DNA of 63,648 bases from an uncultured Erysipelotrichaceae bacterium (lineage in GTDB: Bacteria; Bacillota_I; Bacilli_A; RF39; UBA660). Each line of letters begins with the position of its first letter. The stretch's first letter is position 1. This document shows, one piece after another, positions 1 to 10,855 of this stretch. Where the stretch lies: contig CADBYH010000005.1 in NCBI GenBank assembly GCA_902798815.1, positions 1-63,648 on the forward strand. The letters run 5' to 3'. The notes under the pieces were generated by a model, which was not told where the DNA came from, ran no database searches, and worked only from the letters and a program-made list of their open reading frames with translations. Position numbers and translations under genes: made by a program.

Positions 1-207
1 TCACTTTGTGAAATCTTTTTGGCATGGGATAATTTCCAATTTCAAACAAACTATTAAAAATTTCAAAATTACTATTGACTTTTAATAGTTAGTCACCTCG
101 AATCAAAGATAATTATATCATATTATAAAGCCATCTATTCAAAAATAAAATGGAAGATATAGTCAAAATAATGAATACTTTGTACTAATCTTTTTAATTT
201 TTTCAAA

Positions 208-231
208 AAAATAGAACCTAAAATAGAACCT
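208..231. repeat. Tandem 12-bp direct repeat AAAATAGAACCT x2, putative integrase arm-type site of a further element extending left of the window
   Basis: Perfect repeat about 100 bp left of core 314-323; same position and 12-bp period as the repeats at 6325/6337 and 7205/7217. Confidence 0.55.
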
Positions 232-292
232 AAATTATAATATTTTAAGTCTTAAATTTCTAAACCCATTGATATATAAAGATATAAAAAGT

Positions 293-323
293 GACCTAGT
301 CTCACGACTAGGTCTTCAGGGGG
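293..323 (-). repeat. att-like site 1: core CTTCAGGGGG (314-323) with abutting terminator hairpin
   Basis: Stem GACCTAGTC/GACTAGGTC with 4-nt loop and T-tract on minus strand; identical 10-bp core at 6421 and 7307. Confidence 0.75.
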
Positions 324-470
324 AAATCTTAATATCAGTTCGTAACAATTTAGTAATTGTCTAAATTCTTATAAAATAAGGCTTTTTAATTTTCTTAAAT
401 TTACTAAAGTTTATTAAAATAACTTTATTTTTTGCAATTAGTATCTGGATTTGGTATCTGAAAAACAAAA

Positions 471-527
471 ATGACACTATGACAATTTGTAAATACCTCA
501 CAAGTACTTATTATGTCATAGTGTCAT
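471..527 (-). terminator. Probable terminator of the ABC operon (14-bp inverted repeat, 29-nt loop)
   Basis: ATGACACTATGACA (471-484) / TGTCATAGTGTCAT (514-527), followed by T-tract on minus strand, just past the permease stop. Confidence 0.55.
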
Positions 528-563
528 ATATCATTTAATTTTACTTTTAAAAATATATTTTAA

Positions 564-2906
564 TTATTCACCTATTAATAAATTATATGGTTCTATTTTT
601 CTAATTTTTAATGACATTAAAATTGTAGAAATAACAGATATACTAATTATAAATAAAGCAGATATTATTGATAAATCCATAGGTATAACCATTGTACATT
701 TCATTATACCAAATGGTCTCATATTAAATCCAATATATGGATTTGTAATAAAGTAAGAAATGATTGTACCAATTAATGTAGCAATTATTATTATTGGCAT
801 AAACGCTAAGACATTTTGAATTACTAAATCTGTTGTTTTGTATCCTAGCGCTTTTAAAATACCATATTCATATCTTCTATCATATATCATTGATTTCATA
901 AGTAGATATAATACTAACACTATAATACATCCAGATATAATAGAAATTACTATTACCATTAAGTTAGCAATGCCAACAAAAGTAGACAATTGGCTTTTTA
1001 TTAATTCTTGAAAATCTACTGTAGTAATTATTTTATCACCATACTTTGCATTATATTTATCAATTATTTTACTTGCTTTTAAATTAGAATCAAAATAATA
1101 TACTGAACTAACTTCATCAATATTAATTAATTGTTTAGCTCCATCATATGATAATATTGCTTCACGTCCCGAATTATTTGTAGTTTGAATAAAACCAGTT
1201 ATTAAATATGAGTATTTTTTATTACCAACTTGATATTCTATTTCATCACCGATATTATATCCATTTTCTTTAGCATATTTACCTGATATAGCAACTTCAT
1301 TATCATGTTTAGGATGTCTTCCTTTATAACAATTATCTTTATTGTTAATTTTAGAAGTATCTTCTAATATATAAACTACAAATGGTGAAAAATCTTTATC
1401 ATGCATCATATAACTAGTTAGATATTTAAAATCCTTAATATCTTTATCATTTTTTAAATCATTTACAAACTCTTCTTTTATATCATTATCTACTGAAACT
1501 ATGCCATCAGCTATTTCAAATGTTAATAAAGAAAGTTTTGGTTCTCTACTAAAGTTTTGATACATAGTTACTGAAGCAACCATTAAGAAACATAAGAATA
1601 TTATAGTTATGAAACTAATTATATTTTGCTTAATATTTTTAAACATGTTTTTTAAAGATAAACTGGTATTAATAGATAATTTTGATTTATCTAGTTGAAT
1701 ATGATTTTTCTTAAAATTATGATTTTCAATTCCATCTCTTAATGCGATAATTGGTTCTATTTTTTTTATTTTCCTAATTGATATCATTACAACAAATAAT
1801 ACAAATAAGCTAATAACAATTAAAGTAATTAATGTTGAGGCTATATTAAATTTTAGATTATATGGAATACCAGATTGTGCAATTAACATATTAGTTATTA
1901 TTGGCATAAATAAGTATCCACATATAATACCTAAAACTAAACCTATTATTGTTAATATTCCAAATTGAAATAATAATGATTTTTTTAAATCTTTTGTTGT
2001 ATACCCCATAGCTTTTAAAGCACCTAAATTTTTCATATTTTCTTTAATATAATTTGAAATATTATTAAAGATCATAAGCATAACTATTCCAATAATAATT
2101 ATTACTGTCATAATAAATGAGGCAAAGAATATCATTGAAAGAAATGTTCTTGATTCTATTGTTGTATTTAATGGTGCTACTATTGTTTCAATATTTTTAT
2201 CAATAAATATTTCTCTTACAATCTTATTTGATTCTTTTAGTATAGATGTATCTTTAAAATTTTCTTTATAATTAATATATAAAGTAAATGATTTTGAAGT
2301 TGGATTATCATTTTCAATTTTAGCATAATCTTCATCACTTATAAGCATATGATATTGATTCATGTTATATGATCCACCATAAATAGTATTAATATATCCT
2401 TTTACTTTAAAACTATATGTATTTGTTGGAAATTTTATTTCGTAAGTATCCCCTATATTTATACCTCCTCCAGTATGGATATGGTAAGGTATATAAATAT
2501 AGTTATCTATAATGCTTGTATCTTCTTCAATTATTTCTACTTTAGATATATTTCTATTTAAAGCCTCACTTTTAATAAAATTAACGTATGGAGTAATTTC
2601 TCCTTCATTAAATTTTATTGATGTTTGAACAAATAAATCTTCAGTATATAAATAATCAGAAACACTATCTGGAATAATACTATCAATATATTCTTTGGTA
2701 ATATTGCCTGCATTACCTGATGAATATATTGCAGCATCTGATGCATTTAATCTTTCAGCTTCTTTATACGAACTTTTTTGAAAATCAAAAACTAATAAGC
2801 ATGATACACAAAGAAAGATTGCACCTATAAGTATTAACAAAGCAATACAAATAGATAGTCCTTTATTCTTTCTTAAATTAGATTTAGCTAGTAATATACT
2901 TTTCAT
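564..2906 (-). CDS. ABC transporter permease, FtsX/MacB-like, two repeated halves
   Basis: Two sets of TM helices with GxLKAxGY motifs and large extracellular domains; follows ATPase gene. Confidence 0.9.
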   Translation of the reverse strand: MKSILLAKSNLRKNKGLSICIALLILIGAIFLCVSCLLVFDFQKSSYKEAERLNASDAAIYSSGNAGNITKEYIDSIIPDSVSDYLYTEDLFVQTSIKFNEGEITPYVNFIKSEALNRNISKVEIIEEDTSIIDNYIYIPYHIHTGGGINIGDTYEIKFPTNTYSFKVKGYINTIYGGSYNMNQYHMLISDEDYAKIENDNPTSKSFTLYINYKENFKDTSILKESNKIVREIFIDKNIETIVAPLNTTIESRTFLSMIFFASFIMTVIIIIGIVMLMIFNNISNYIKENMKNLGALKAMGYTTKDLKKSLLFQFGILTIIGLVLGIICGYLFMPIITNMLIAQSGIPYNLKFNIASTLITLIVISLFVLFVVMISIRKIKKIEPIIALRDGIENHNFKKNHIQLDKSKLSINTSLSLKNMFKNIKQNIISFITIIFLCFLMVASVTMYQNFSREPKLSLLTFEIADGIVSVDNDIKEEFVNDLKNDKDIKDFKYLTSYMMHDKDFSPFVVYILEDTSKINNKDNCYKGRHPKHDNEVAISGKYAKENGYNIGDEIEYQVGNKKYSYLITGFIQTTNNSGREAILSYDGAKQLINIDEVSSVYYFDSNLKASKIIDKYNAKYGDKIITTVDFQELIKSQLSTFVGIANLMVIVISIISGCIIVLVLYLLMKSMIYDRRYEYGILKALGYKTTDLVIQNVLAFMPIIIIATLIGTIISYFITNPYIGFNMRPFGIMKCTMVIPMDLSIISALFIISISVISTILMSLKIRKIEPYNLLIGE

Positions 2907-2907
2907 A

Positions 2908-3663
2908 TTACCACCCCATCTTAATTAAGAAGTCAGATAATTTTTGATGACGTTCTTTATCATTTGGAATATATTTTCCTAAATTACATTCACCAACTAT
3001 TTCACCATCTTTTAGGTAAATAATTCTATTTCCTCTTCTTGCACTTTTAATATCATGTGTAACCATAACAATAGATTGTCCTTTGTTATTAAATTCTGTT
3101 AGAGTATCTAAAACATCTTTTCCAGTTTTAGAGTTAAGTGCTCCTGTTGGTTCATCTGCAAAAACAAGTTTAGGATTATTAATTAAAGCTCTTGCTATTC
3201 CTACTCTTTGAGCTTCTCCACCAGATAATTGTGTTGGAAATTTAGTCCATAATTCTTCTTTTATATCTACTTTCTTTAATATTTCTTTAGCATTCTTTAC
3301 TACTTCTTTTTTATTATTATTAACAAGAAGTCCTGATACTAACACATTATCAAGTACACTCATAGAATCTATTAAATAAGTCTGTTGAAATACAAATCCA
3401 CAGTTTTTTCTTCTAAATTGAGCTAATTTATCAATAGTCATTTTAGTTATTTCTTTATTATTAAATGATATTTGACCTAATGTAGGTTTATCCATACCTG
3501 ATAGTGTATATAAAAGTGTCGATTTACCTGCTCCTGATGCTCCCATTATAATTGTATAATCACCTTCATATATTTCTAAATCTATATTTTTAAGTACATG
3601 TTGTTGTAATCCACCATTTGAAAATGTTTTACATAATTTTTTTGTTTCTATTATATTTCCCAT
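2908..3663 (-). CDS. ABC transporter ATP-binding protein (LolD/MacB-like)
   Basis: Walker A GASGAGKST, LSGGE, ADEPTGALN, VTHD; start moved to ATG 3663 behind AGGGAGAG. Confidence 0.93.
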   Translation of the reverse strand: MGNIIETKKLCKTFSNGGLQQHVLKNIDLEIYEGDYTIIMGASGAGKSTLLYTLSGMDKPTLGQISFNNKEITKMTIDKLAQFRRKNCGFVFQQTYLIDSMSVLDNVLVSGLLVNNNKKEVVKNAKEILKKVDIKEELWTKFPTQLSGGEAQRVGIARALINNPKLVFADEPTGALNSKTGKDVLDTLTEFNNKGQSIVMVTHDIKSARRGNRIIYLKDGEIVGECNLGKYIPNDKERHQKLSDFLIKMGW

Positions 3664-3688
3664 AAAACTCTCTCCCTTTACAACATAC

Positions 3689-3743
3689 ATAGTACGCTAT
3701 TTTTTCTTAAATAACTTTAATTAATTCTTAAATATTTCTTAAA
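3689..3743 (-). promoter_or_regulatory. Response-regulator-dependent promoter of the ABC operon: tandem TTTAAG repeats and -10 TACTAT
   Basis: Minus strand TTTAAG-aaata-TTTAAG-aatta-ATTAAA-gtta-TTTAAG-11nt-TACTAT; 10-11 bp period typical of OmpR-family boxes. Confidence 0.65.
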
Positions 3744-4989
3744 TAATACGAATATAAATAGTTACAATAAACCCTGGATTAGCATTACTAAGCTCTAATT
3801 TACCATTCATATTATCCATAAAATAATTAGCTAGATGAAGTCCTAATCCTGCGCCATCTTTGTCTTTTACATCTCTTCCTCTTTTATATTTTTCTTTTAA
3901 TAAAGGTAAATCTAATTCATTTACTCCATTACCATAATCTCTAAAACTAATAATTAAGTATTCTTCTTCTTTTTCTATATTAATATCTATCTTTGTATTA
4001 GCATATTTATATGAATTATTAATTATATTATCTAATGTTTGTTGCATACGTATTTTATCTATATAAATATTACAATTAGGAACCTTATAATCATTTAGTT
4101 TATTTAGATAGTCAGCATTTTTAATTAAATTATTTAAAATATCAGAACTATAATTAGAAGGATTTACATCAATCTCTGTTATATCATTAATACTAGAATT
4201 AAATAAATTATCTACTAATATTTTTATTTGATCTGTTTTTATATTTATTTGATTAAAATAATTTTTAATATCTTTATCTTTTGTTTTTTCATAACCTATT
4301 TCTGATGTTGATTTAATAGAAGCAATTGGTGTTTTTATATCATGAGATAATTTAGATACCATTTCTTTTTTAGCATCATTTGCATTTTTTTCATTTATTC
4401 TAGCTTTTTTTAGTTCACTTCTCATTAAATCAAATGCTTCAGTAAATCCTCCAAATACATGTTTTTTATCCATATATAATGGAATATCTAAATTACCATC
4501 TGCTACTCTTACTGCAAATTTATTTAGATCATTAAATGGTTTTATAATATTTCTATTTATATATATTGAATATATTATTAATAAAAGTATTTGAATTATA
4601 AACATTATAAATACAGTAATAAATATATAATTCTTATAATTATTTATTAATTCATTAGTATTATTTTTTATAAGTATTTTACCTACTACTATATCATTAA
4701 TTTTTAAATCAAGAATAATGTCATTATTCTTAATTGCATCATTTAAAGAATTAGATTCAGATTGTTTTGTCTTATATATTAATTTATCATTAGTATCAAT
4801 TATTGAATAATCTAATATTTTACAATAATTATCTTCATCATTATAATTTTCCTCTACTTCTTTTACACATTCATTTACTTTTACTATATCTTGGTTAACG
4901 CTTTCTATTCTTTCACATAAAAATGTACATATAAATATTTCCATAAGAAAAGTAAAAATAAATAAGATTATAATTGTTTTTCTTCTCAT
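3739..4989 (-). CDS. Sensor histidine kinase (HAMP, HisKA, HATPase)
   Basis: SHDIKTP H-box, NIINNSYKY N-box, DYGNG, GAGLGL; two TM segments. Confidence 0.93.
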   Translation of the reverse strand: MRRKTIIILFIFTFLMEIFICTFLCERIESVNQDIVKVNECVKEVEENYNDEDNYCKILDYSIIDTNDKLIYKTKQSESNSLNDAIKNNDIILDLKINDIVVGKILIKNNTNELINNYKNYIFITVFIMFIIQILLLIIYSIYINRNIIKPFNDLNKFAVRVADGNLDIPLYMDKKHVFGGFTEAFDLMRSELKKARINEKNANDAKKEMVSKLSHDIKTPIASIKSTSEIGYEKTKDKDIKNYFNQINIKTDQIKILVDNLFNSSINDITEIDVNPSNYSSDILNNLIKNADYLNKLNDYKVPNCNIYIDKIRMQQTLDNIINNSYKYANTKIDINIEKEEEYLIISFRDYGNGVNELDLPLLKEKYKRGRDVKDKDGAGLGLHLANYFMDNMNGKLELSNANPGFIVTIYIRII

Positions 4990-5666
4990 TTACTTTCACC
5001 TTCAAACTTATATCCTTCTTTCCAAACGGTAGTAATATATTTTGGATTATTTGGATCTATTTCAATTGCTTCCCTTATTTTTCTTATGTGAACATTAAGT
5101 GTTCCATCTCCTGTAAACTTATCTTGCCAAACATTATCAAATAGTTCATCTTTTGTAACTAATCTATTTGAATTATTTATTAAATATGTTAATAATTTAT
5201 ATTCTAAACTAGTTAGTTTAACTAAATTATCTTTTAAATATACTTCTTTATTTTGAAAGTCAACTCTTAAATTACCATCATTAAATTCTTTTAGGTCTTC
5301 CTTTTTAAATCTTTTTAACATTACTTTTACTTTCGCAAGTAAAACTCCAAGTGAATATGGTTTTTCTATATAATCATCCCCACCTATATTTAAAGCAATT
5401 ATTTTATCATCATCTGTATTTCTTGCTGATATAAATAAAATAGGAATATCTTTTTCTTTACGTAATTGCTTACATAAATCAAAACCCGATCCATCTTGTA
5501 GATTAATATCTAAAAGTATTAGTGATGCATCATTACTTTCAAAAAAAGCATTACACTCACTTTTACTATAACAGGCATATGTATTAATGTTAAACATATT
5601 TAAATATTCACAAGTATTATCCGCAAGTTCTTTTTCATCATCTACTATTAGACAATCATATTTCAT
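4986..5666 (-). CDS. OmpR-family response regulator
   Basis: IVDDE, LLDINL, ISAR, DYIEKP receiver motifs; winged helix VHIRKIREAIE...YITTVWKEGY. Confidence 0.95.
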   Translation of the reverse strand: MKYDCLIVDDEKELADNTCEYLNMFNINTYACYSKSECNAFFESNDASLILLDINLQDGSGFDLCKQLRKEKDIPILFISARNTDDDKIIALNIGGDDYIEKPYSLGVLLAKVKVMLKRFKKEDLKEFNDGNLRVDFQNKEVYLKDNLVKLTSLEYKLLTYLINNSNRLVTKDELFDNVWQDKFTGDGTLNVHIRKIREAIEIDPNNPKYITTVWKEGYKFEGESK

Positions 5667-6245
5667 AGAATCACTCCCTTAAAATTACATTTTTTTATTA
5701 ATACATTACTAACAGCAATTACTGTGCAAGAATAAATTAATACAAATAATGAATCAGAAAAATTTAATAATTTCAATTCATTTGCATATAGAATACTGTT
5801 TAGAACAAAATGAAAAACTATACTAATAATAAGAAAACTAATATTCTTTTTTTGAAAGAAATAAAATCTAAATAAGTTAAACAAAGAAGTGCAACTAATG
5901 ATATCAATCGAGATATAATTAATAGTAATCCACTACCAAAACTAGATATTAGAACAATTGAACTTCCTATATCAAAAACTGTATGAAATATTCCTCTACT
6001 GAGACCAAACCATTTTGTTAAAAATTTATTATGATCTTTTTTTTATACATTTTTCATTACAAAATAATAACCGCATCCTTCAGAAATTGCTTGTATAATT
6101 CCAACAATGATGCATAAAACAATCAAATGATTATTAAAAATTGTTTTTAATGGCGAATATATCAATATTGCTTGTATAGGTTGCGGTAATAACAATCCAA
6201 ACGTTACTAAACTAATAACTCCTAAAAAAAGTATTTTTTATTCAT
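5663..6245 (-). pseudogene. Disrupted paralog of the YhfC-like membrane protein at 6566-7132
   Basis: ATG 6245 with RBS AAGGTGTG; collinear with intact copy but -1 frameshift in run 6224-6230, in-frame TAA 6043-6045, -1 frameshift in run 5847-5853; EE motif reads EG. Confidence 0.8.
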
Positions 6246-6401
6246 TTTTATCACACCTTATAACCATTATAACATATTATCCTTAAAACTTATCTCACTT
6301 TAAAAAATAGAAATAAATTTGGTTTGGATAGGTAGCTAGATGAATAAAACTCTATATAAATATTAAAATTTTGTTTTTTTATAAAATAAGACAAAAAAAA
6401 T

Positions 6402-6430
6402 GATAGGCCATAAGGCCTATCTTCAGGGGG
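6402..6430 (-). repeat. att-like site 2: core CTTCAGGGGG (6421-6430) with abutting terminator hairpin
   Basis: Stem GATAGGCC/GGCCTATC with 4-nt loop and T-tract on minus strand. Confidence 0.75.
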
Positions 6431-7316
6431 CGCACATTAGATCCTCCACTGTATTTTTTGATTTTCCATAATTCGTTATAAAATAAGGACTTTTTCCATT
6501 TGTCAAAAATTAGTTTTCCACTACATTTTACCCCTTTGGGTAGGTAATTTGGGTAGGTAAAATTACTATAAATTCTTTTTTATTAAAACTCTACTTACTA
6601 GAATTACTATACATGAATAAACTAGTACAAATATTGAATCAGAAAAATTAAATAATTTTAATTCATTTGCATATAGAATACTGTTTAGAACAAAATGAAA
6701 AACTATACTAATAATAAGAAAACTAATATTCTTTTTTTTGAAAGAAATAAAATCTAAATAAGTTAATTGAACAAGTGCAACTAATGAAATTAATCTTGAA
6801 ATAACTATAAGAAATCCATTACCAAAACTTGTGATCAAAATCATTGCACTAGCAATATCAAAAATTGTATGAAGTACTCCTCTACCTAAACCGAACCATT
6901 TTGATAAACAATCACTATGATCTTTTGTATATATTTTTTTCATAACAGAATAATAACCACATTCCTCAGAAATAGCCTGAATAATTCCAACAATTATACA
7001 TAGAATAACCAAATGGTTATTAAAAAAACTATTTAATGGAGTATATACCAGTAAAGCTTGTATTGGTTGTGGTATAAGAAATCCAAATATTATAAGACTA
7101 ATAATTCCTATAAAAAAGTATTTTTTCTTCATTTATATCACCAACTATAATAATTATACCATATTATTTCTAAAGCCTTTACAAAAATGGAAAAACTTTC
7201 ATTTTGGGTAGGTAGCTGGGTAGGTAAAATTTTTGATATTTTTCTATAATTCTCAGATTCCATTATAAAATAAAGGAATAAAAAAAAGTGGACCTCTATC
7301 GAGGTCCTTCAGGGGG
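6421..7316. mobile_element. Single-gene islet/cassette B (886 bp core to core)
   Basis: Direct core repeats at both ends; TGGGTAGGTA x2 inside each end (6537/6550 and 7205/7217); one cargo ORF; no integrase. Confidence 0.7.
6566..7132 (-). CDS. YhfC/PrsW-like intramembrane glutamic protease family protein
   Basis: Multi-TM; QAISEE, FGLGRG and FHFVLN motifs resemble YhfC family motifs. Confidence 0.6.
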   Translation of the reverse strand: MKKKYFFIGIISLIIFGFLIPQPIQALLVYTPLNSFFNNHLVILCIIVGIIQAISEECGYYSVMKKIYTKDHSDCLSKWFGLGRGVLHTIFDIASAMILITSFGNGFLIVISRLISLVALVQLTYLDFISFKKKNISFLIISIVFHFVLNSILYANELKLFNFSDSIFVLVYSCIVILVSRVLIKKNL

Positions 7317-7381
7317 TTCGGTTGAATATACTCTAACATTAAACCGTTAGAGATATCGGCATGATATTTTTTCTATCATGC
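7280..7381 (-). ncRNA. Putative ~100-nt small RNA (two hairpins, C-rich linker, terminator); apparent integration target
   Basis: Promoter upstream; hairpins GCATGATA/TATCATGC and CTCTAAC/GTTAGAG; unpaired CAACCGAACCCCCTGAA; terminator GGACCTC/GAGGTCC plus T-run; no ORF. Confidence 0.7.
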
Positions 7382-7387
7382 ACCTTA

Positions 7388-7416
7388 ATCATAAATGATA
7401 ATTATAGAATTGTCAA
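7388..7416 (-). promoter_or_regulatory. Sigma-A type promoter TTGACA-17-TATGAT for the small RNA
   Basis: -35 at 7416-7411, -10 at 7393-7388; predicted +1 at 7381 is the first base of hairpin 1. Confidence 0.75.
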
Positions 7417-7814
7417 TTGCATTTATTAAAAACATCAAAAACTTTACAATTTTTATTTTTTATTAATTGTTTGCAATTTTCTTGTTCCTTTTTTTCTAAA
7501 ATATACTTATTACCAAGTCTAATAAGTTTATCAAAAGTTGGTTCATCCCATAATTTCTTTTCTATTTCATTATCTCCTCTATATCCATTCCTACTAAAGT
7601 AATCTAATTCTTCTAAATATTTAAATCTAGGTACCTCATAAACAAAATGATAATATTCTAAACATATACTTGGATATAACTCTTTTATCTCACTTATATC
7701 ATATCCATCTAATATTTTTTCAACAACCTCCTCTAGTAAATCTATAAAGTACTTTGCACCTACAATCTTTACATCAAATCCATTTTCCTTTAAAAATTTC
7801 TTATATTCAATCAT
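7413..7814 (-). CDS. Hypothetical protein resembling a stand-alone Spo0A C-terminal domain
   Basis: FLKENGFDVKIVGAKY...IKELYPSI resembles Spo0A_C (IHEIGVPAHIKGYxY...TKxLYPxIA); recognition helix region not conserved; RBS GAGAGGAG. Confidence 0.4.
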   Translation of the reverse strand: MIEYKKFLKENGFDVKIVGAKYFIDLLEEVVEKILDGYDISEIKELYPSICLEYYHFVYEVPRFKYLEELDYFSRNGYRGDNEIEKKLWDEPTFDKLIRLGNKYILEKKEQENCKQLIKNKNCKVFDVFNKCN

Positions 7815-7842
7815 TATTATTCTCCTCTCATTCTTTGAATTT

Positions 7843-7849
7843 TGTCGAA
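7843..7849 (+). promoter_or_regulatory. Perfect Spo0A box TGTCGAA
   Basis: Exact consensus about 30 bp upstream of the Spo0A_C-like ORF; a single 7-mer could be chance. Confidence 0.4.
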
Positions 7850-7953
7850 AAAAAACTACGAAATAAAAATCTTTTCGTGTTTTTACTACCTATATAACTA
7901 TTCTATTAAACCCACCGAGAAACAATGATATCAAATAATAACTAGTTTGTCAA

Positions 7954-9954
7954 CTATGATTCTTTAAGTGAAATAGAATTAATCAATTTGATTTTTAATT
8001 CATCATTATCAGTATCTTTATTTAACAAATACTCTTTTGAATCTTTTTTTGCTTGTAATAGGATTTTATAATCATTCTTAATTGATGCAATCTTAAAACT
8101 CATATCTCCGGATTGTTTTGTTCCAAATAAATCACCATGTCCTCTTAATTTAAAGTCCTCTTCAGATATTACAAAACCATCGTCTTCTTTCTCCATTATC
8201 TTAAGTCTTTCTGTATCACTATCACTTATTAAGATACATTGACTCTTTGAAGTTCCTCTTCCTACTCTTCCTCTTAACTGATGAAGTGTAGATAAACCAA
8301 ATCTATCAGCATCAAAAATAACCATTGTAGTTGCATTAGGAACATCTACTCCAACTTCCACAACAGTTGTGGAAATAAGTATTTGTACTTTATTATTTTT
8401 GAATTGATCCATAATAATATCTTTTGCACCACTTGACATCTTTCCATGAACAATATCAATTTTATATAAATCTTTAAAAGCTAAAATCATTTGTTCTTTT
8501 AATTCATTAACAGTAGTTAAATCACTATTTTCACTTTCTTCAATCAATGGAGCAATAACATACATTTGATGTCCTTTTTTTAATTCTTTATACATTATCT
8601 CAAGAACATCTTTTATTTCACTATTCTTCTTTACATATGTATCTATTTTTTGTCTTCCTTTTGGTCTTTCTTTAATTGTTGAAACATCCATATCTCCAAA
8701 AATAGTTAATGCATAAGTTCTTGGTATAGGTGTTGCACTCATATATAATACATCTGGTGTTAATCCTTTATTCTGAAGATTAGCTCTTTGATGAACACCA
8801 AATCTATGTTGTTCATCTGTTATAACCAATCCAAGATTGTTATAAACTACTTCATCTTGAATTAAAGCATGTGTTCCAATTACCATATTAATTGAACCAT
8901 CCTCTAATCCTTTATAAATACTTGTTTTATCCTTCTTAGAAGTAGATCCTGTAAGTAATGCAACTTTAACATCAGTCCCTTTTAAGAATTCAACCAAATT
9001 ATTATAATGCTGTGTAGCTAGAATTTCTGTAGGTGCCATCAAAGCACTTTGATATCCTGCCAAATAATTAGCATACATTCCTATAAAAGCTACTACAGTT
9101 TTTCCTGAACCAACATCACCTTGTAATAATCTATTCATCCTATGAGGAGCTTCTAAATCATTTAAAATCTCATCAACTGCTTTTAATTGATCATTAGTTA
9201 ATTTAAATGGAATATTTTTATATAACTCATTTAACTTATCTCTATCAATTACTCTATCTAAACCATTATTCTTTTTCTTATTTATTTGTTTTAAATAATT
9301 TATCTTAAACATAAATTCAAATAATTCTTCATATTTTAATCTTATAGTAACTTCTTTTAACTTTTCACTAGTACTAGGATTATGAATTACATTTAAAGAA
9401 GTTTTCTTATTTAAGAAGTTATATTTTTCTATGTATTCACTAGGTATATAATCAGGAATATCTCTACCATAAACTAATAAAGCCATATTTATATATGTAG
9501 ACATATTCTTATTAGTTAAACCACTTGTACAATGATAAACTGGTTCTATTTTTACTTTATTAGATAAAGCTTCCATCTTTATATCACTAGCTGTAATTAC
9601 ATTTTTTAATTTATCTAACTTACCAATTACAGTAACTGAACTACCAACTCTAAGTTGATTCTTTAAAAACGCTCTATTAAAAATTGAGACACCTACTATT
9701 CCAGAATGAGTAACAAGTCTAAAATTCATTTTATTTAATCCTGCTTTAAATCTCATTAAAATAGGTACACTTTCAACTTTTCCGTCAATAACAATTTTTT
9801 CACCATCACCTACTTTAGATAAATCATCTCTTTCAAGAACATCATATCTAAACGGATAATGAGTAACTAAATCTTCTATCGTATTAATTCCAATCTTATT
9901 TAATAAAGAAAGAGATTTAGGTCCTATACCTTTAACGTCTTTTAATTCAGCCAC
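7954..9954 (-). CDS. recG: ATP-dependent DNA helicase RecG
   Basis: RLLQGDVGSGKT, DEQHRFG, MSATPIPRT, LHQLRGRVGRG; GTG start 9954 behind AGAAGGAAG. Confidence 0.97.
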   Translation of the reverse strand: MAELKDVKGIGPKSLSLLNKIGINTIEDLVTHYPFRYDVLERDDLSKVGDGEKIVIDGKVESVPILMRFKAGLNKMNFRLVTHSGIVGVSIFNRAFLKNQLRVGSSVTVIGKLDKLKNVITASDIKMEALSNKVKIEPVYHCTSGLTNKNMSTYINMALLVYGRDIPDYIPSEYIEKYNFLNKKTSLNVIHNPSTSEKLKEVTIRLKYEELFEFMFKINYLKQINKKKNNGLDRVIDRDKLNELYKNIPFKLTNDQLKAVDEILNDLEAPHRMNRLLQGDVGSGKTVVAFIGMYANYLAGYQSALMAPTEILATQHYNNLVEFLKGTDVKVALLTGSTSKKDKTSIYKGLEDGSINMVIGTHALIQDEVVYNNLGLVITDEQHRFGVHQRANLQNKGLTPDVLYMSATPIPRTYALTIFGDMDVSTIKERPKGRQKIDTYVKKNSEIKDVLEIMYKELKKGHQMYVIAPLIEESENSDLTTVNELKEQMILAFKDLYKIDIVHGKMSSGAKDIIMDQFKNNKVQILISTTVVEVGVDVPNATTMVIFDADRFGLSTLHQLRGRVGRGTSKSQCILISDSDTERLKIMEKEDDGFVISEEDFKLRGHGDLFGTKQSGDMSFKIASIKNDYKILLQAKKDSKEYLLNKDTDNDELKIKLINSISLKES

Positions 9955-10116
9955 ATAACCACTTCCTTCTTGGCATATTATAACATATTTAGTATCATTT
10001 TTAAAGAAAAACACACTTGCTATAAATATTATTTATATATCAACACAACCATTATAAATCAATGTTTTGACATAGTATCATTATTAAAAAAAAGTGCATT
10101 TTTTTTACAATTTTTG

Positions 10117-10145: not shown

Positions 10146-10150
10146 AAGAA

Positions 10151-10252
10151 GCACCAATTCGGAATTAGGCGAATTGGTCGCTAGTATCACACTAGCCAAC
10201 CCCTTTTTATTCTTTTTGGAGGTTGCCCTCAGGGGGTGCAACCTCTTAGTTT
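10151..10252 (+). ncRNA. Putative ~100-nt small RNA no. 2
   Basis: GC-rich against background; hairpins ACCAATTCG/CGAATTGGT and GCTAGT/ACTAGC, linker CAACCCC, hairpin GAGGTTGC/GCAACCTC; may extend to the terminator at 10258-10292. Confidence 0.6.
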
Positions 10253-10257
10253 GAAAC

Positions 10258-10292
10258 AAAAAAAAGAGATGCGGTCGAACATCTCTTTTTTT
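10258..10292. terminator. Bidirectional intrinsic terminator
   Basis: A-tract, GAGATG/CATCTC stem, T-tract between convergent units. Confidence 0.8.
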
Positions 10293-10774
10293 TAATTATT
10301 TTCTGTAAAATGAGTTAACAAGAACATAAAGAAGTATCCAAAGAAAAATGAAACTACAAGACAAAGTATATACAAAAGTAATGATTTAAACTTTCCTTGA
10401 GATATAAATACCGCAATTAATATTATCGCAATTGCAATACCCAATCTACTAAACCATACTGAAAAAATTGAAAGTATCTTCATAAAAGTACTGTTTTCAT
10501 CATTATACTCAACTTCATCATCATCAGATTCTACATCTACAAAAGTCTCTTTTTTATTTTTTGTTTCATATTTTGTTGTTTTAACTTCTTCTTCAGCAAA
10601 CTCTTCTTCATCGTCATTTACCTTAAAAAACTCTTCATACTCTTTTTCTTCGTCATATTCATCATCTAGTCTTTTTTCACCAGCGTCGTCTACAACTTCT
10701 TCAATTTCATAAGTATCATCATCTTCAATAAAATCATCTAAATCGATTTCAAAATTCTTTTTATTCCTTCTCAT
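10292..10774 (-). CDS. Hypothetical membrane protein, very acidic N-terminus and two C-terminal TM helices
   Basis: ORF composition; start set at ATG 10774 from RBS spacing. Confidence 0.75.
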   Translation of the reverse strand: MRRNKKNFEIDLDDFIEDDDTYEIEEVVDDAGEKRLDDEYDEEKEYEEFFKVNDDEEEFAEEEVKTTKYETKNKKETFVDVESDDDEVEYNDENSTFMKILSIFSVWFSRLGIAIAIILIAVFISQGKFKSLLLYILCLVVSFFFGYFFMFLLTHFTENN

Positions 10775-10855
10775 AACTACAACCACCCATCAATTTGCTG
10801 GTATTATAACATATTTATCAAAAAAATGCAAAAAAAACTGAAAATTTCAGTTTTT

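Follow-up and report, generated by a model that had tools for sequence, protein, structure and literature searches.

A conserved small RNA gene next to recG bears a tandem stack of decayed integrative elements in an uncultured Bacilli genome

Site-specific accretion and decay to cis-mobilizable elements (CIMEs) are known from the integrative and conjugative elements (ICEs) as well as the integrative and mobilizable elements (IMEs) of streptococci, such as those of the ICESt1/ICESt3 type (PMC5704250). In the part of that account drawn on here, integration takes place at the 3' end of a conserved gene, the resident decays while keeping attL and attR, and newcomers enter at an att site of the resident, which gives tandems (PMC5704250). 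In Dehalococcoides, tandem islands lie 3' of one stable-RNA gene, ssrA, each flanked by a short direct repeat of the 3' end of that gene; an integration module stands beside attL in some, and others lack it and are proposed CIMEs, according to the relevant portion of PMC3146451. The enterobacterial small RNA genes ryeB and ryeE are on record as phage targets in the passages used from PMC3603311. The window, by which we mean the whole stretch of DNA analysed here, consists of bases 1-63648 of contig C5 of an assembly (G000) from an uncultured Erysipelotrichaceae bacterium, and the contig begins at window base 1. From that base onwards it holds decayed integrative elements stacked in tandem at a small RNA gene close to recG. 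We put the probability that this conserved gene is an integration hotspot with tandem accretion at about 0.85.

The stack follows the streptococcal pattern in the points named above. It differs in that the target is a small RNA gene and not a protein or tRNA gene, in that many integrase clades with different arm words (the words repeated in the direct-repeat pairs beside each core) use one 10-bp core, and in that cis-mobilisation is here no more than putative. With the Dehalococcoides islands it shares multiple tandem units downstream of one stable-RNA gene and a repeat of the 3' end of that gene. Those islands have a CcrB-like serine recombinase and a 20-bp repeat of the transfer-messenger RNA (tmRNA), with no arm sites described in the portion of the source referred to, whereas the window family has tyrosine recombinases, arm repeats and an uncatalogued RNA. 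As with islands and prophages at tRNA, tmRNA and small RNA genes, at least as these are presented in the parts of the sources cited, an element would enter the 3' part of the RNA gene and restore that end. Unlike the enterobacterial small RNA islands, the present stack belongs to another phylum and another RNA and is a far denser array of small cargo units.

An earlier note on this DNA had proposed that the locus works like a cassette array. The tandem array at a hotspot stands, and the likeness to integrons is an analogy only. Like an integron, the locus is an array of short, exchangeable, mostly single-function units bounded by recombination sites; unlike an integron, it has no intI beside attI and no attC hairpins, and its units have their own promoters and lambda-type core-plus-arm sites. 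An integron was ruled out, as recG and a 133-aa open reading frame (ORF) stand upstream of the array in place of an integrase and the junctions consist of the 10-bp core and arm repeats. An IS200/IS605-type hairpin element was also set aside: there is no transposase, and integrases are present. New here are the target RNA, the number of arm-word classes on one core and the small size of many units.

The source assembly comprises 1.45 Mb in 52 contigs with 25.8% G+C and 75.7% completeness. The 10-mer CTTCAGGGGG, which the earlier note had placed at 314, 6421 and 7307 in one orientation, is found at 314-323, 6421-6430 and 7307-7316, all on the plus strand, and these three copies compare with a mean of 0.01 in 100 shuffles. 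The 1.45-Mb assembly as a whole has six copies, the others being on contigs C37 and C6, and no copy of a reversed control pattern. The surroundings are the same around all six, and the 10-mer is therefore no general terminator motif; the possibility that it is common at unrelated terminators, raised earlier as an objection, gave way to a single architecture. Because the genes throughout 1-10014 of the window are on the minus strand, the array is read on that strand and the 10-mer becomes CCCCCTGAAG. In this direction the six copies have the same layout: a direct-repeat pair at about -115 to -140, the 10-mer, a G+C-rich hairpin, a T run and a second pair at about +70 to +100. A palindrome, CTTATTTTATAAG, is found at -56 of the 10-mer in some of the six. 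CCCCCTGAAG closes the small RNA and recurs at each junction that follows, and so forms a core direct repeat at both boundaries of the elements. The cores and the target gene are as follows.

7307-7316, minus strand: core 3, read as CCCCCTGAAG; 3' end of the small RNA and junction of the RNA and element A, attL-like
6421-6430, minus strand: core 2, junction of elements A and B
314-323, minus strand: core 1, junction of element B and the third element
7278-7385, minus strand: small RNA gene of about 105 nt, putatively attB-bearing (conservation, covariation and fold)
7389-7416, minus strand: predicted sigma-70-type promoter, TTGACA at 7416-7411, 17 nt, TATGAT at 7394-7389 (sequence reading)

Within the genus the 10-mer was found in 33 of 36 genomes, with 1-7 copies each against 0-1 for the control. 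It was rejected as a sign of the system outside the genus, where 11 of 24 genomes had 1-2 copies and the reversed control was similar (0-4); a scan with the 21-mer that ends in the core is the better measure there. Some exact 10-mers are not junctions. One lies within a 1654-aa ORF of locus L034 (codes with G, C, L and X stand for genomes, contigs, loci and sequencing runs), and several in the loci of relatives are part of a different conserved hairpin upstream of recG.

Two hairpins open the small RNA, the single-stranded linker UAUAUUCAACCGAA-CCCCCUGAAG comes next, and a terminator hairpin (7290-7307) followed by a U run closes it. The earlier description of core 3 as lying in the C-rich linker of a promoter-bearing structured RNA is in line with this. 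The promoter hexamers TTGACA and TATGAT recur 5' of the small RNA in relatives. In most of the same-genus loci taken from around the 10-mer the gene stands just downstream of recG; a small ORF separates the two in some genomes, the present one included. The 21-mer occurs in contigs of at least 119 species, with records titled as uncultured Bacilli, Tenericutes or Erysipelotrichaceae metagenome-assembled genomes, Candidatus Onthousia and Clostridium sp. CAG:417. RNAalifold analysis of 111 distinct copies, in which the last 21 bases are invariant by construction, gave two hairpins with compensatory changes in 11 of the 12 predicted pairs, and the fold of the window's own copy has a z of -6.6. 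Rfam at gathering score gave only a tRNA for the whole window, and neither an E-value scan of 1-8000 nor a lax scan of 7260-7420 gave a family for the small RNA at that score. The best match on 7260-7420 is SraC/RyeA (E 0.28, 18.1 bits against a gathering score of 37 bits) on the opposite strand; it was read as chance together with the FopS, Bacilli-1 and DUF3800-I rows, all far under their gathering scores. A leader or riboswitch reading was dropped, as the genes 3' of the RNA vary among species. Taken together, conservation, covariation and fold indicate that 7278-7385 (minus strand) is a real, structured, promoter-bearing small RNA absent from Rfam. Its C-rich single-stranded linker is presumably comparable to the seed regions of regulatory RNAs in Firmicutes. 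The literature, searched by topic and not by sequence and with supplementary files outside the scope, gave the known parallels and nothing on this small RNA or site. A 172-nt contig of RNA run X19 covers 7141-7312 and none is listed on the body of the small RNA, which is uninformative on expression either way.

Two further features were seen near this gene. The 133-aa ORF between recG and the small RNA promoter (7413-7814, minus strand) has no Pfam or NCBIfam family match, and in several relatives its position is taken by a different small ORF or by none. A second conserved non-coding element lies at about 10150-10260 (minus strand), between the ORF at 10292-10786 and the start of recG at 10014; in most loci of the genus its distance from the small RNA is 2.4-3 kb on the upstream side. 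It consists of a hairpin GAGGTTGCA-CCCCCTGAGG-GCAACCTC, an A-rich stretch and then AAGGGGTTGG, and has no Rfam match at gathering score. The loop of the hairpin is one base off the integration core, and the G-rich stretch of the element could pair with either C-rich word.

The sequence downstream of the small RNA varies among relatives, and some carry nothing there. The cargo types are Mrr with a KAP NTPase, GmrSD, Thoeris ThsA/ThsB, AbiEi/AbiEii, a BrxC/D-like ATPase with TerB and a helicase, a Mob_Pre relaxase with an AAA_25 protein, helix-turn-helix (HTH) ATP-binding cassette (ABC) transporters and trypsin-like proteases. No phage structural genes were found in the elements where cargo was scanned. 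The earlier note had asked for empty sites and had named fixed, syntenic cargo as evidence to the contrary. Cargo is not fixed, and 50 of 106 distinct small RNA flanks from many species have no arm pair and look empty (for example L001 and L004-L008). Contig C37 of the same assembly holds two further junctions and is probably the distal end of the same array, because another species (L015) has the same far flank. The element on this contig (G000:C37:1888-4444, L158) has AGATACCA arms and encodes an HTH-fused ABC ATPase and a 534-aa membrane protein without family match; the best NCBIfam match of the ATPase is the lantibiotic-protection ABC ATPase subfamily, with 211 bits and under the 310-bit cut-off. 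On C6, a 431-aa ORF about 1.8 kb from the core (G000:C6:130-1425, minus strand) is by eye a candidate IS30-type transposase.

Integrases are linked to the core in relatives. A Pfam scan of the 10-mer flanks gave PF00589 above cut-off in 5 of 124 ORFs, 366-380 aa in length; four of these also match SAM-like N-terminal domains, two of the four Arm-DNA-bind_4 as well. Each of the five stands immediately after a core, on the strand opposite to it, and three (L019, L029 and L023) follow the small RNA itself. With tblastn on 155 loci, 37 of 42 integrase matches are no more than 250 nt away from a core. The distinct integrase ORFs that stand 48-144 nt from the core, again on the opposite strand, number 28, and 26 of these are at the small RNA. 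The objection that no integrase might be linked to this core anywhere therefore falls away. Within the genus the family was found in 9 of 47 genomes at 12 places, seven of which are at most 170 nt from an exact core.

The integrases share with those of Firmicute phages and ICEs the PF00589 catalytic domain and the SAM-like and arm-binding N-terminal domains. The best phage matches have 33-35% identity (Clostridioides difficile phages phiMMP02, phiCD505 and phiCD508, the phage recorded as Wrath, and Bacillus phage phIS3501), and none of at least 60% was found among the 2034 phage records matched; also unlike these phages, the elements scanned lack phage structural genes. The nearest solved chains are 6emy/6emz/6en0, 'Int protein' (E 7e-11), with IntI4 far behind (E 6e-4), and the scores are far under the integron-integrase cut-offs. 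These matches mark the enzymes as ordinary integrases of the Firmicute phage or ICE type. The AGGTTCTA-type integrases of two species, L019:3986-5086 (G023) and L029:4289-5389 (G022), have 100% or 99.7% protein identity in two comparisons, another sign of recent interspecies spread. The window's own genome has only two PF00589 genes, XerD- and XerC-like (324 and 325 bits), just below the equivalog cut-offs and above that of the 'tyrosine recombinase' subfamily, and six serine-recombinase matches (PF00239).

Arm pairs are found at the target in many species. A pair is present at +35 to +150 in 56 of 106 distinct small RNA 3' flanks, compared with 1 of 94 stretches upstream of the RNA and 0 of 106 shuffles. 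In eight complete segments the left word equals the right word: element A, the C37 element, two segments in L019, and one each in L029, L024, L023 and L021. The words and the integrases found with them are as follows.

TACCTACCCA: element A of the window, no integrase
AGATACCA: C37 element, no integrase; L023, integrase present and also a relaxase
AGGTTCTA: L019 and L029, integrase present; L024, only a 48-aa integrase stub
TTTACATTAAC: L019/L020, integrase present
TAGGTGGCA: L021, no integrase

On a tree of 24 full-length integrases the 10 word labels require nine changes, the fewest possible, so that the arm words track the integrase clade, which is consistent with arm recognition. Each of the three arm words of the window has an integrase-bearing counterpart elsewhere, because TACCTACCCA also stands in L036/L101 beside an integrase that follows the small RNA and is truncated at the contig end. 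The earlier interpretation of the repeat pairs as integrase arm sites gains from the recurrence of one word at both ends of complete segments. Mini-elements of about 620 bp occur directly after the small RNA in L018 (3733-4350) and L011 (3934-4535) and have an AGATACCA arm pair at either end. All that can be seen inside them is a promoter-like site and an opposite-strand ORF for a hydrophobic peptide of 27-33 aa with a Shine-Dalgarno sequence, a look-alike of type I toxins.

Within the window, the array comprises two elements and the beginning of a third.

6431-7306, minus strand: element A, both ends intact, 876 bp from core to core and 886 bp if one core is counted in
7290-7307, minus strand: terminator-like hairpin of element A (sequence reading)
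about 7262-7275, minus strand: palindrome of element A, first in minus-strand order (sequence reading)
7205-7228, minus strand: left arm pair of element A, TACCTACCCA twice (sequence reading)
6566-7132, minus strand: gene for the 188-aa membrane protein of element A (ORF and Pfam)
6537-6562, minus strand: right arm pair of element A, TACCTACCCA twice (sequence reading)
6475-6487, minus strand: palindrome of element A, last in minus-strand order (sequence reading)
324-6420, minus strand: element B, hybrid, 6097 bp between cores
6403-6421, minus strand: hairpin, left part of element B
6325-6348, minus strand: decayed left arm pair, left part of element B
about 5690-6240, minus strand: frame-broken paralogue of the element A gene, left part of element B
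4986-5666, minus strand: OmpR-type response regulator of element B (ORF and Pfam)
3739-4989, minus strand: histidine kinase of element B (ORF and Pfam)
2908-3690, minus strand: ABC ATPase of element B (ORF and Pfam)
564-2906, minus strand: FtsX-type permease of element B (ORF and Pfam)
471-527: terminator inverted repeat of element B, after the permease
441-466, minus strand: right arm pair of element B, AGATAC word (sequence reading)
369-381, minus strand: palindrome of element B (sequence reading)
1-313, minus strand: left end of the third element, cut by the contig end, with a hairpin at 293-314 and a left arm pair at 208-231 (TAGGTTCTAT twice)
129-191, plus strand: integrase gene stub of the third element, the last 19 codons and the stop

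The coordinates given earlier for the 12-bp repeat pairs are right. The pair 208/220 is exact (ATAGAACCTAAA twice) and 7205/7217 matches at 10 of 12 positions; 6325/6337 matches at only 6 of 12 and is a decayed copy. The 13-bp pairs are present as reported, 6537/6550 with 11 of 13 matches and 441/454 with 8 of 13 and the common word GTATCTG, and so is the ATAAAATAAG-like A/T palindrome between core and arms near 371, 6381, 6478 and 7265.

Element A retains attL and attR, as cores and matched arm pairs are found at both ends. Its 188-aa protein matches Pfam YhfC by its whole-protein score (E 1e-8, 35.4 bits against a cut-off of 24.2 bits), with no single stretch passing alone. In element B the broken paralogue is 83% identical to the element A gene, the arm words differ between the two ends, so that attL and attR correspond to those of a CIME in part only, and the right end is, by reading, close in look to that of the AGATACCA element on C37. 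Element B is read as two elements fused through deletion of an internal junction. We take its gene order to be like that of Bce-type peptide-sensing modules. Pfam gave only transporter, two-component and membrane-protein domains for the five ORFs of 324-7306 (the four intact ones of element B and the element A gene). As judged from these ORFs, elements A and B appear to lack integration and transfer genes, as CIMEs do.

The earlier label of integrase-less cassettes holds for elements A and B and not for the third element, which keeps the stub at 129-191 (plus strand). The stub is identical at 20 of 20 residues to residues 348-367 of the L019 integrase (tblastn, E 3e-5) and has the position and orientation of the integrase gene in intact elements; a similar stub, of 48 aa, is found in L024. 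The arm word of the third element also flanks integrase-bearing elements in L019 and L029 and the integrase-less one in L024. In contigs of runs X3, X5 and X9, window base 1 is immediately preceded by sequence ending like window ..3738 and seven extra bases. The left flank that is missing may thus start with a stretch resembling the region upstream of the ABC ATPase gene (3691-3738, compared with window 1-98), which would explain the break in the assembly.

These features suggest a mechanism in which CCCCCUGAAG, the last single-stranded bases of the small RNA, would serve as the attB core for tyrosine-integrase elements. Integration would proceed by a crossover at an inferred position inside the 10-bp core, which would be duplicated at the far end. 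Because the element would bring its own terminator-like hairpin, the RNA would keep its 3' end. Arm-type direct-repeat pairs lie about 70-100 nt inside the left end and about 115-140 nt inside the right end of each element, with a repeat word private to the integrase clade and putatively read by the N-terminal arm-binding domain of the integrase; we hold this arm recognition with less confidence than the hotspot and its accretion. Later arrivals would enter at one of the existing cores, so that elements would pile up in tandem. Residents that lose the integrase would become passengers, movable only with an integrase from a matching element. Under this scheme element A would be a mini-element that has intact ends and carries one membrane protein gene, element B an A-like remnant fused to a two-component and ABC-transporter module with an AGATACC-type right end, and the third resident the start of a AGGTTCTA-type element with its integrase cut to a stub. 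Whether anything in the window is still able to move is roughly an even question. The hosts of the element family are uncultured gut and rumen Bacilli.

The comparison with other genomes bears on how recently the elements moved. A contig from another species (G008) matches window 222-7363 at 99.4% identity, whereas the flank with the small RNA and recG is only 77-80% identical between the two genomes; the A+B block has therefore spread recently between species. In G008 the block is preceded by different upstream sequence, a diverged look-alike of the small RNA. The last 74 bases before the contig end of L017 (G008:C5) show this look-alike as two hairpins, CACAACCAAAA and then the core. The canonical small RNA of G008 is on another contig and is followed by an integrase-bearing AGATACCA element.

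The stretch is present in bovine gut metagenomes of nine coded studies. Metagenome contigs from three DNA runs (X3, X5 and X9) and one RNA run (X19) were aligned to the window at 90% likeness; all four runs consist of contigs, from which no transcript ends or expression levels are obtainable. The contigs break mostly at the cores. One X9 contig passes from 7306 via the core into 324 and onwards; its shorter side measures 79 nt, and the joint could equally come from a circle or a tandem of A+B or from a different array order in another strain. In a second X9 contig, 323 leads on into the right end present on C6 of the source assembly. Neighbours thus change exactly at the cores. The joints do not prove excision in this organism, because the contigs stem from mixed communities at 90% likeness. 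A joint of 313 to 7307 in X3 and X5, which would place the small RNA directly before the third element, was not counted as evidence, because it has 20 nt on the shorter side and a hairpin common to other species; many other short-sided joints in AT-rich sequence were ignored. Deletion of element A was not among the 15 listed of 45 joints.

Several points weigh against the hotspot reading. The window's own assembly, 75.7% complete, has no integrase of this family, only the XerC- and XerD-like genes and the six serine-recombinase matches. The exact 10-mer or 21-mer was the search key, so that the invariance of those bases is by construction, and one junction with a mismatch, TCCCCTGAAG, was seen. 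The match of word and clade falls short of proof, because relatedness alone could give it, and the equality of left and right words could likewise come from shared descent. Element B may be immobile as it stands, because the arm words at its ends are unlike. Contigs with alternative joints may belong to other strains or species, and no empty site has been demonstrated for the window's own organism.

An array that came by integrase-mediated integration and is now fixed and vertically inherited over the whole window is the most probable of the alternatives, though we consider it rather unlikely. In its favour, the assembly lacks an integrase of the family, and the integrase stub, the broken paralogue and the hybrid element B are what a fossil would leave. 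The junction of the 886-bp circle named earlier (7306 to 6421) is absent among the 15 listed of 45 metagenome joints, and no circle junction has been demonstrated for this organism. A fossil agrees less well with an A+B block that is nearly identical where the flank has diverged and that has therefore moved recently, with the different upstream sequence of that block in G008, with the other neighbours at cores 1 and 3 in metagenome contigs or with the intact and matched arms of element A, and a quarter of the genome is unassembled.

Local tandem duplication is a much less probable explanation. The repeat pairs would then be operators of regulators, such as the OmpR-type response regulator at 4986-5666, and no site-specific recombination would be involved. 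The two 83% identical paralogues (6566-7132 and about 5690-6240) are 886 bp apart, the left arm pairs lie upstream of cargo promoters, and direct repeats with a period of 11-13 bp are typical for winged-helix regulators. Against duplication stands the same architecture on two other contigs with unrelated cargo and in dozens of species with integrases abutting the core. The right arm pairs are downstream of cargo terminators, and the mini-elements of about 620 bp have both arm pairs and no regulator; the words vary with the integrase clade and not with the cargo.

That host XerC/XerD (on a Xer-exploiting element) or a serine recombinase acts at the core, with the adjoining integrases coincidental, is scarcely credible and was dropped: the genome has XerC- and XerD-like genes and six PF00239 matches and the window elements lack an integrase, but the 28 distinct integrases have a fixed distance and orientation from the core and bear N-termini of the arm-binding type, no dif-like 28-bp palindrome was recognised around the core by reading (no formal search), and arm-type repeats are a feature of lambda-type integrases and not of Xer or serine systems.

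Integration and accretion at the small RNA gene, which the earlier note had proposed as a hotspot other than a tRNA, thus draw their support from the variable cargo, the core-linked integrases and the finding that the 10-mer is no common terminator word. A further and more tentative proposal, which we think somewhat less probable than not and put forward as a conjecture, is that one invariant core, within a conserved small RNA of regulatory function, serves at least 10 integrase clades, each with a private arm word, as an orthogonal addressing code, and that the flank is a lambda-type counterpart of the integron. If this is true, many unrelated elements could stack at one site and still be excised singly or en bloc by whichever integrase is present. 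The array would then be a library of defence, immunity and transporter units, exchangeable across species and reaching down to units of about 620 bp with little beyond both arm sets and a gene for a toxin-like peptide, and the target would be a C-rich small RNA, new and widely conserved, in a lineage of uncultured Bacilli.

The locus is a hotspot for gene exchange among uncultured Bacilli of gut and rumen, a large group, and a simple sequence handle for finding it is made up of the small RNA's end and the 10-mer. In relatives it gathers anti-phage systems (parts of Thoeris, GmrSD, AbiE, Mrr/KAP and BrxC/D-like proteins), and in this genome transporter modules that would be peptide-sensing, which makes it a practical target in the search for new defence and immunity genes. 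Through it a small RNA comes to light that more than 100 species conserve and that Rfam lacks. With their many arm words on a single core, the related integrases offer a natural test bed for the evolution of arm recognition, and if the words are orthogonal, the set of integrases would be a source of mutually independent recombination tools.

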